Source: Escherichia coli (lineage in GTDB: Bacteria; Pseudomonadota; Gammaproteobacteria; Enterobacterales; Enterobacteriaceae). From it: DNA of 12,341 nucleotides. Each line of letters opens with the position of its first letter. The stretch's first letter is position 1. Under the pieces are notes generated by a model that did not search any database, was not told where the DNA came from, and was given only the letters and a program-made list of their open reading frames with translations. The stretch lies in assembly GCF_003334815.1 (NCBI RefSeq), contig NZ_QOWO01000059.1; one strand, 5' to 3'. The translations under genes were made by a program, and so were the position numbers. Positions 912 to 1,049 of the stretch are shown one piece after another.

Positions 912-1049
912 GCGCCAGCTTGCACCCACCTCGCTAAGTGCTGAAATTTTCAGCATTACACTCAGCGATATGTAACCTTTGTCACACTCCAGGCACCCCG
1001 CCCTGCCATGCTCTACACTTCCCAAACAACACCAGAGAAGGACCCAAAA

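Follow-up and report, generated by a model that had tools for sequence, protein, structure and literature searches.

The window, by which we mean the whole 12,341-nucleotide stretch of DNA analysed here, is Escherichia coli chromosome and is 99.8% identical to strain 300709. The tRNA gene leuX and the aldehyde reductase gene ahr are transcribed divergently from a ~195-bp intergenic region (Table 1), and yjgR, lptG/lptF, pepA, holC and valS lie 3' of ahr. leuX encodes the minor tRNA-Leu(CAA). In uropathogenic E. coli the supply of this tRNA limits the expression of genes rich in UUG codons, fimB among them, and pathogenicity islands frequently insert at leuX. At its left end (1-721), the window carries a tyrosine-recombinase/integrase gene of a leuX-inserted island, which runs off the end. 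The gene that follows ahr is yjgR here, as opposed to idnK in K-12 (window 2070-3701).

Within the intergenic region, at window positions 939-955, lies the palindrome TGCTGAAA-T-TTTCAGCA, an exact 8-1-8 inverted repeat centered at 947, identical letter for letter to the one named in the original prediction. Its end is 94 bp away from the ahr ATG at 1050 (about 95 bp had been given) and it is located 27 bp upstream of the leuX -35 hexamer, in keeping with the placement just upstream of that hexamer proposed earlier. In MG1655 (NC_000913.3) the palindrome occupies 4,496,304-4,496,320, and the leuX start is at 4,496,383. Counting arms of 8 or more and spacers of 0 or 1, this is the sole perfect inverted repeat in the 12.3-kb window. 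The chance expectation was estimated by first-order Markov simulations of the window, which put the expected number per window at 0.23 for the perfect 8-1-8 form and at 0.51 when spacers of 0-1 are allowed (the probability of at least one being 0.2-0.4). Within the ~196-bp leuX-ahr intergenic region the expectation ranged from 0.008 (spacers 0-1) to 0.046 (spacers 0-12). Considering that 8-1-8 palindromes are expected at the former rate in 12.3 kb, the symmetry by itself is weak evidence; conservation, rather than symmetry, lifts the palindrome above chance. Two other perfect repeats have arms of 8 or more, and both are G+C-rich hairpins of the terminator type. One, at 3794-3813, lies between the convergent yjgR and lptG; the other, at 11453-11476, comes after valS and has a T-run behind it. 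Both probably serve as intrinsic terminators.

The promoter scan of the window missed the leuX promoter, the -35 hexamer of which scores 3/6, and the promoter was therefore placed by the mapped start and by conservation. The start was determined by primer extension (Mohanty and Kushner, PMC2811032) as the G located 22 nt upstream of the mature 5' end. The in vitro leuX template in that study begins GTTTTCCGCATACCTCTTCA, and the published primer sequence matches the window. Counted from this start, the center of the palindrome is at -71 of leuX. The spacer between the -35 and the -10 is 16 bp and is fixed across 112 species, and a C is present two nucleotides after the -10 in 105 of the 112 leuX promoters. 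With its imperfect -35, this spacer length, a consensus -10 and the C that follows, the promoter resembles the growth-rate-controlled promoters of the rRNA P1 type in its kinetic features. The core promoter as a whole (870-911) shows extreme conservation in the same 112 species, with TTGC, TATAAT and the GG that immediately precedes the -10 invariant or nearly so. A second inverted repeat, TGCAAGC-GCCA-GCTTGCA (907-924), overlaps the -35; it is kept in Escherichia and not in other genera.

Table 1. Features of the leuX-ahr region, in window coordinates. Positions in the last column are relative to the mapped leuX start, except those of the palindrome, which are relative to the center of its 15-bp core.
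Feature	Position	Strand	Remarks
leuX, tRNA-Leu(CAA)	770..854	-	
leuX transcription start, G	876	-	mapped start placed on the window; transcript begins GTTTTCCGCATACC
leuX -10, TATAAT	884..889	-	-13 to -8; in all 113 anchored promoters
leuX -35, TTGCAT	906..911	-	-35 to -30; TTGC invariant (112/112)
Promoter-proximal flank	932..938	-	with base 939 reads ACTTAGCG; about -63 to -56
Palindrome, candidate 17-bp Fis site	939..955	.	core 940-954 = GCTGAAATTTTCAGC; T at -8, A at +8
ahr, NADPH-dependent aldehyde reductase	1050..2069	+	divergent neighbor, outside the element

Match to the Fis recognition motif

Fis, a homodimeric nucleoid protein, recognizes a 15-bp core according to a set of rules, which entail G at -7 and C at +7 (contacted by Arg85), an A/T center with a compressible minor groove, a purine at -3 and a pyrimidine at +3, and the exclusion of A at -4 and T at +4, both of which clash with Asn84. 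The revised motif (Hancock 2016) extends these rules to a pyrimidine at -8 and a purine at +8, G at -8 being inhibitory. A pyrimidine-purine step at ±(3-4) enhances affinity and is seen in ~80% of regulatory Fis sites; it is not obligatory. In the leuX palindrome, G-7 and C+7 are found at 940 and 954, the center AATTT spans 945-949 with every position from -3 to +3 being A/T, and the bases at -4, +4, -3 and +3 are G, C, A and T, respectively, all of which are permitted. The bases at -8 (939) and +8 (955) conform to the revised motif as well and give the favored TG step. The sole non-optimal feature is the location of the pyrimidine-purine steps (TG and CA), which are at ±(4-5) and not at the optimal ±(3-4). 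A step at ±4/5 rather than at ±3/4 lowers affinity by ~6- to 10-fold, and this arrangement is common to the F18 site and to most Fis sites without the 3-4 step.

An identical core was included as sequence 11 in the work of Shao et al. 2008 and is bound by Fis in vitro with a Kd of 5.8 nM (tabulated in PMC3547798, Table S1), a value that describes the core in the flanks of sequence 11. For comparison, in the same series the reference site has a Kd of 0.9 nM, and the non-binding mutants at ±7 or with -4A/+4T have values of at least 2000 nM (PMC3547798, Table S1). Sequence 11 and the leuX site share the 15-bp core and differ in the flanking bases, which are A and T in sequence 11 and T at -8 and A at +8 in leuX, the latter pair being favorable according to Hancock et al. 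The F18 site (Stella/Hancock), with a Kd of 2 nM, shares with leuX the right half TTTTCAGC along with the pyrimidine-purine steps at ±4/5.

The rules were also cast into a simple 11-point score, with rrnB P1 and tyrT as positive controls. The score recovered the published sites of rrnB P1 (-71, -102 and -143) and of tyrT (-71 and -122), and the leuX site at -71 scored 11/11. The background rate of such full scores is one per ~2300 bp. Further 11/11 15-mers are present in the window at 10307-10321, 11936-11950 and 12227-12241, a number near this background rate.

Conservation of the element and its linkage to leuX

One genome per species was scanned with a 30-mer inside the leuX tRNA, a probe that is unbiased with respect to the promoter, and this gave 120 loci from ~40 genera. 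An ungapped alignment of 112 sequences, anchored at the -10 and covering ~110 species of Enterobacterales, was built from these; two loci with enough upstream sequence and without TATAAT were left out of the anchored set. The leuX upstream region is conserved in two parts only, the core promoter and a block of ~24 bp at roughly -78 to -55, the stretch from -54 to -37 and the sequence upstream of -81 being unconserved. Within the block, G at core -7 is present in 105/112 and C at core +7 in 107/112. Not one of the 112 sequences has G or C at the five positions from core -1 to +3, and only three have either base at -2. A is absent from core -4 throughout (0/112) and T occurs at +4 in 6/112, with a pyrimidine at -8 in 99 and a purine at +8 in 106 of the sequences. 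A 15-mer that complies with the Fis rules is located at a fixed distance from the -10 in 110 of 111 loci (nominally at -70 or -69, which corresponds to -71 or -70 from the mapped start). As a control, ~150 other positions in the same 111 loci gave 14 compliant hits, which were scattered. The exception among the loci, Phytobacter massiliensis, has an apparent 1-bp deletion in the T-run (GTTGTTTTTTCGGC), and its span from G to C is 14 bp.

The perfect 8-1-8 symmetry is seen in merely 2 of 71 distinct orthologous sequences, the site being perfectly symmetric in Escherichia and Salmonella. Complementarity between the arms persists in the orthologues only at ±7 and, in most cases, at ±4, and the usual center is an asymmetric T-run. 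Conservation across Enterobacteriaceae orthologues, put forward in the original prediction as a check on the palindrome, holds in 110 of the 111 Enterobacterales loci for the Fis-compliant element and fails for the symmetry. Within E. coli, the 30-mer at 927-956 is identical in 4496 of 5426 complete genomes. Divergent strains have SNPs in both flanks and intact arms, the one change within the palindrome being at its central base, which is either T or A. Fixed arms with a central A/T toggle are as expected for shape readout. Judged from the alignments, the conservation pattern is that expected for Fis and the opposite of that for a symmetric repressor that reads bases.

The comparative set also bears on the question of which gene the element serves. 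The site is present in all 27 loci with ahr adjacent to leuX and in 83 of the 84 without it. It keeps a constant spacing from the leuX -10, whereas anywhere from 103 to 229 bp separate it from the ahr ATG. No comparable site was found upstream of ahr in any of the 21 species in which ahr is 0.9 to 8 kb from leuX. The fixed spacing, the presence without ahr and the absence at the separated ahr genes together indicate that the element belongs to leuX. The proposal that an operator is positioned here to affect either divergent promoter is not supported by this comparison, as the site tracks the leuX -10 and not ahr. What is kept upstream of ahr is a different block, ATGCTCTACACTTCC at 1008-1022, which is located 28-42 bp upstream of the ATG and is retained in nearly all of 49 ahr loci, whether leuX is adjacent or not. 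This block is probably the ahr core promoter; within it, TCTACACTT fits the sigma-S-type -10 consensus KCTAYRCTT.

A probable Fis site and its alternatives

Fis site I is centered at -71 in both rrnB P1 and tyrT, and the leuX site shares with it this position, the G-7, the C+7 and the A/T center (tyrT, GGATGAAAATTACGC; rrnB, GGTTGAATGTTGCGC; leuX, GCTGAAAATTTCAGC). All three promoters drive stable RNAs, have 16 bp between the -35 and the -10, and carry a -10 that is at or near consensus. The leuX element shows two features of the site I class, namely centering near -71, on the helix face of RNA polymerase, and a downstream stable-RNA promoter with rRNA-like core features. The differences from rrnB P1 and tyrT are of note as well. 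These two promoters carry further Fis sites, whereas leuX has one conserved site; a search for sites II and III upstream of leuX found none conserved in the 111 loci. In addition, leuX is devoid of an A/T-rich UP element; the space from the candidate Fis site to the -35 is instead taken by the ACTTAGCG flank, followed by an unconserved G+C-rich stretch.

Based on the sequence, the position relative to the mapped start, the fit to the Fis rules, the published Kd of the core, and the conservation with linkage to leuX, we consider the palindrome most likely to be a high-affinity Fis site, the only one of its kind at leuX, which is centered at -71 and serves the promoter as its upstream activating sequence. 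By analogy with Fis site I of rrnB P1 and tyrT, we infer that Fis would occupy the site in vivo, activate leuX and contact the alpha C-terminal domain of RNA polymerase. According to this model, when Fis is abundant (upon nutrient upshift and in early exponential growth), the homodimer would bind the core, with Arg85 contacting the guanines at ±7 and the A/T center providing a narrow minor groove, and the DNA would be bent. Activation from -71 would be Fis-dependent and of the class-I type, as at rrnB P1 and tyrT, and it would couple growth phase to the supply of leuX tRNA. An effect of the site on ahr is unsupported. The part of the original prediction by which the palindrome is the operator of a dimeric factor is retained insofar as a dimeric DNA-binding protein very probably recognizes the element; a sequence-specific regulator with symmetric half-sites is not what the data describe. 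The candidate Fis site at -71 offers a concrete route from growth phase to the level of leuX tRNA, and the wiring is kept at single-base-pair spacing over ~40 genera of Enterobacterales. That this shape-readout site is perfectly symmetric is an accident of particular lineages and no sign of a new regulator or of ahr control.

The leuX site is most likely a new or poorly documented case of an arrangement that is itself well known and of textbook mechanism. In the accessible literature on leuX and Fis, we found no statement of Fis control, of in vivo occupancy or of leuX expression in a fis mutant. The compilation of in vivo and curated Fis sites in PMC3547798 (Table S3) has no entry between 4,488,312 and 4,518,095, an interval that spans leuX (~4,494,335, older MG1655 coordinates). 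This compilation draws on the ChIP-chip data of Cho 2008, on Grainger 2006, on 261 EcoCyc sites and on only the short regions of the Kahramanoglou ChIP-seq, with some data corruption. The absence of leuX from it is weak negative evidence, since most ChIP-seq regions were omitted, and suggests that the site had yet to be curated when the table was compiled. Nilsson and Emilsson reportedly studied how individual tRNAs depend on Fis in 1994, and Verbeek and colleagues are said to have predicted Fis sites upstream of many tRNA operons in 1990. Databases may name Fis among the regulators of leuX.

The promoter-proximal flank adds a further element to this picture. It is almost as conserved as the core, with T at two of its positions in 100 and 92 of the 112 sequences and A, G and C in 83-88; over the following 18 bp, in the direction of the -35, conservation is lost and the sequence is G+C-rich, with no UP element. 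The fixed G-4 and C+4 and the ACTTAGCG flank exceed the demands of the generic Fis motif, and as far as the alignment goes there may be extra readout at these positions. The flank may be an extended region of Fis contact or bending, or a docking site for the alpha C-terminal domain. The conserved TT(A) one helical turn from the center could likewise reflect wrapping of the flank, as described by Hancock et al., or docking of the alpha C-terminal domain. A more elaborate reading, which we rate as unlikely, is that the Fis core, the flank and the fixed G-4/C+4 form a composite module of ~25 bp, which would replace the UP element by positioning a second partner beside Fis. The partner would be a sequence-specific contact of the alpha C-terminal domain or another factor. 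In Escherichia the module would perhaps be bidirectional, as the symmetric site there is followed on its ahr side by a CRP-like site and by the probable sigma-S-type promoter of ahr; if so, leuX would go up and ahr down with growth phase.

Readings that dispense with Fis are less probable still. The first of these, which we give only a small chance of being right, is an upstream element that stimulates the promoter by curvature of its T-tract or by a far-upstream, UP-like contact with the alpha C-terminal domain. This reading draws on the fact that the most conserved bases of the block are those of the T-run at -70 to -67 (nominal), where T is present in 99 to 111 of the 112 sequences, and on the lack of an A/T-rich UP element between -40 and -60 in the leuX promoter. 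Yet the G and the C at ±7 are as conserved as the T-run, and curvature alone does not predict the exclusion of A at -4, the near-exclusion of T at +4 or the pyrimidine and purine at ±8. Furthermore, UP elements are located at -38 to -59 and not at -64 to -78. A very unlikely reading is that a dimeric regulator with sequence specificity uses the palindrome as its operator and controls ahr or both promoters, the closest candidates being of the LacI/GalR type, such as Cra (FruR). The perfect symmetry and the location 94 bp upstream of the ahr ATG speak for it, and the half-site GCTGAAA resembles the Cra half-site (ideal site, GCTGAAAC joined to GTTTCAGC). The Cra consensus is, however, an even palindrome of 16 bp with a central CG, whereas the element at leuX has an odd length, 15 or 17 bp, and one A/T pair at its center. 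No more than 11 of the 71 distinct sequences retain the TGAA/TTCA pair, and positions ±1, ±2, ±6 and ±8 are complementary in a minority of them, at odds with a symmetric operator. The variable distance to the ahr ATG, the absence of the site in the 21 species with a separated ahr and the location of the conserved ahr upstream block elsewhere stand against an ahr operator. The palindrome is, moreover, linked to a tRNA promoter and not to a carbon-metabolism gene. The comparative sequences thus leave the Cra/LacI-type or ahr operator reading largely refuted. For Lrp and sigma-54, comparison by eye with the consensus motifs gave poor matches.

Two further readings concern the palindrome as a structure or as an accident. 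As RNA, the region can form a hairpin with 9 bp in its stem and 3 nt in its loop (-9.6 kcal/mol), with z-scores of -3.0 on the + strand and -2.3 on the - strand, which would be compatible with an RNA hairpin or a DNA cruciform that acts as a terminator, an attenuator or a processing signal. The palindrome is, however, upstream of the mapped leuX start and of the conserved ahr promoter block, and is thus probably not transcribed. It lacks a U-run, the terminator scan of the window finds nothing at 939-955, there is no Rfam match, and the complementarity of the arms is unconserved in the 71 sequences, without compensatory changes. Such a role is exceedingly improbable. A chance palindrome without function has hardly more to recommend it than the simulated number of 8-1-8 palindromes per 12.3-kb window given above, against which stand the conservation at a fixed distance in 110 of the 111 loci and the invariance of the arms amid SNP-bearing flanks in E. 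coli. Conservation refutes this reading, and we assign it next to no probability. A Fis site of leuX is the preferred interpretation of the palindrome.

The CRP-like site mentioned above is at 971-986 and reads TGTAACCTTTGTCACA. It agrees at 9 of 10 positions with the CRP consensus TGTGA-N6-TCACA. Among the E. coli strains sampled this sequence does not vary, and it is also present in E. albertii and in several Citrobacter. Its distance to the leuX start is roughly kept (about -100 to -102.5), and its distance to the ahr ATG shifts by 28 bp.
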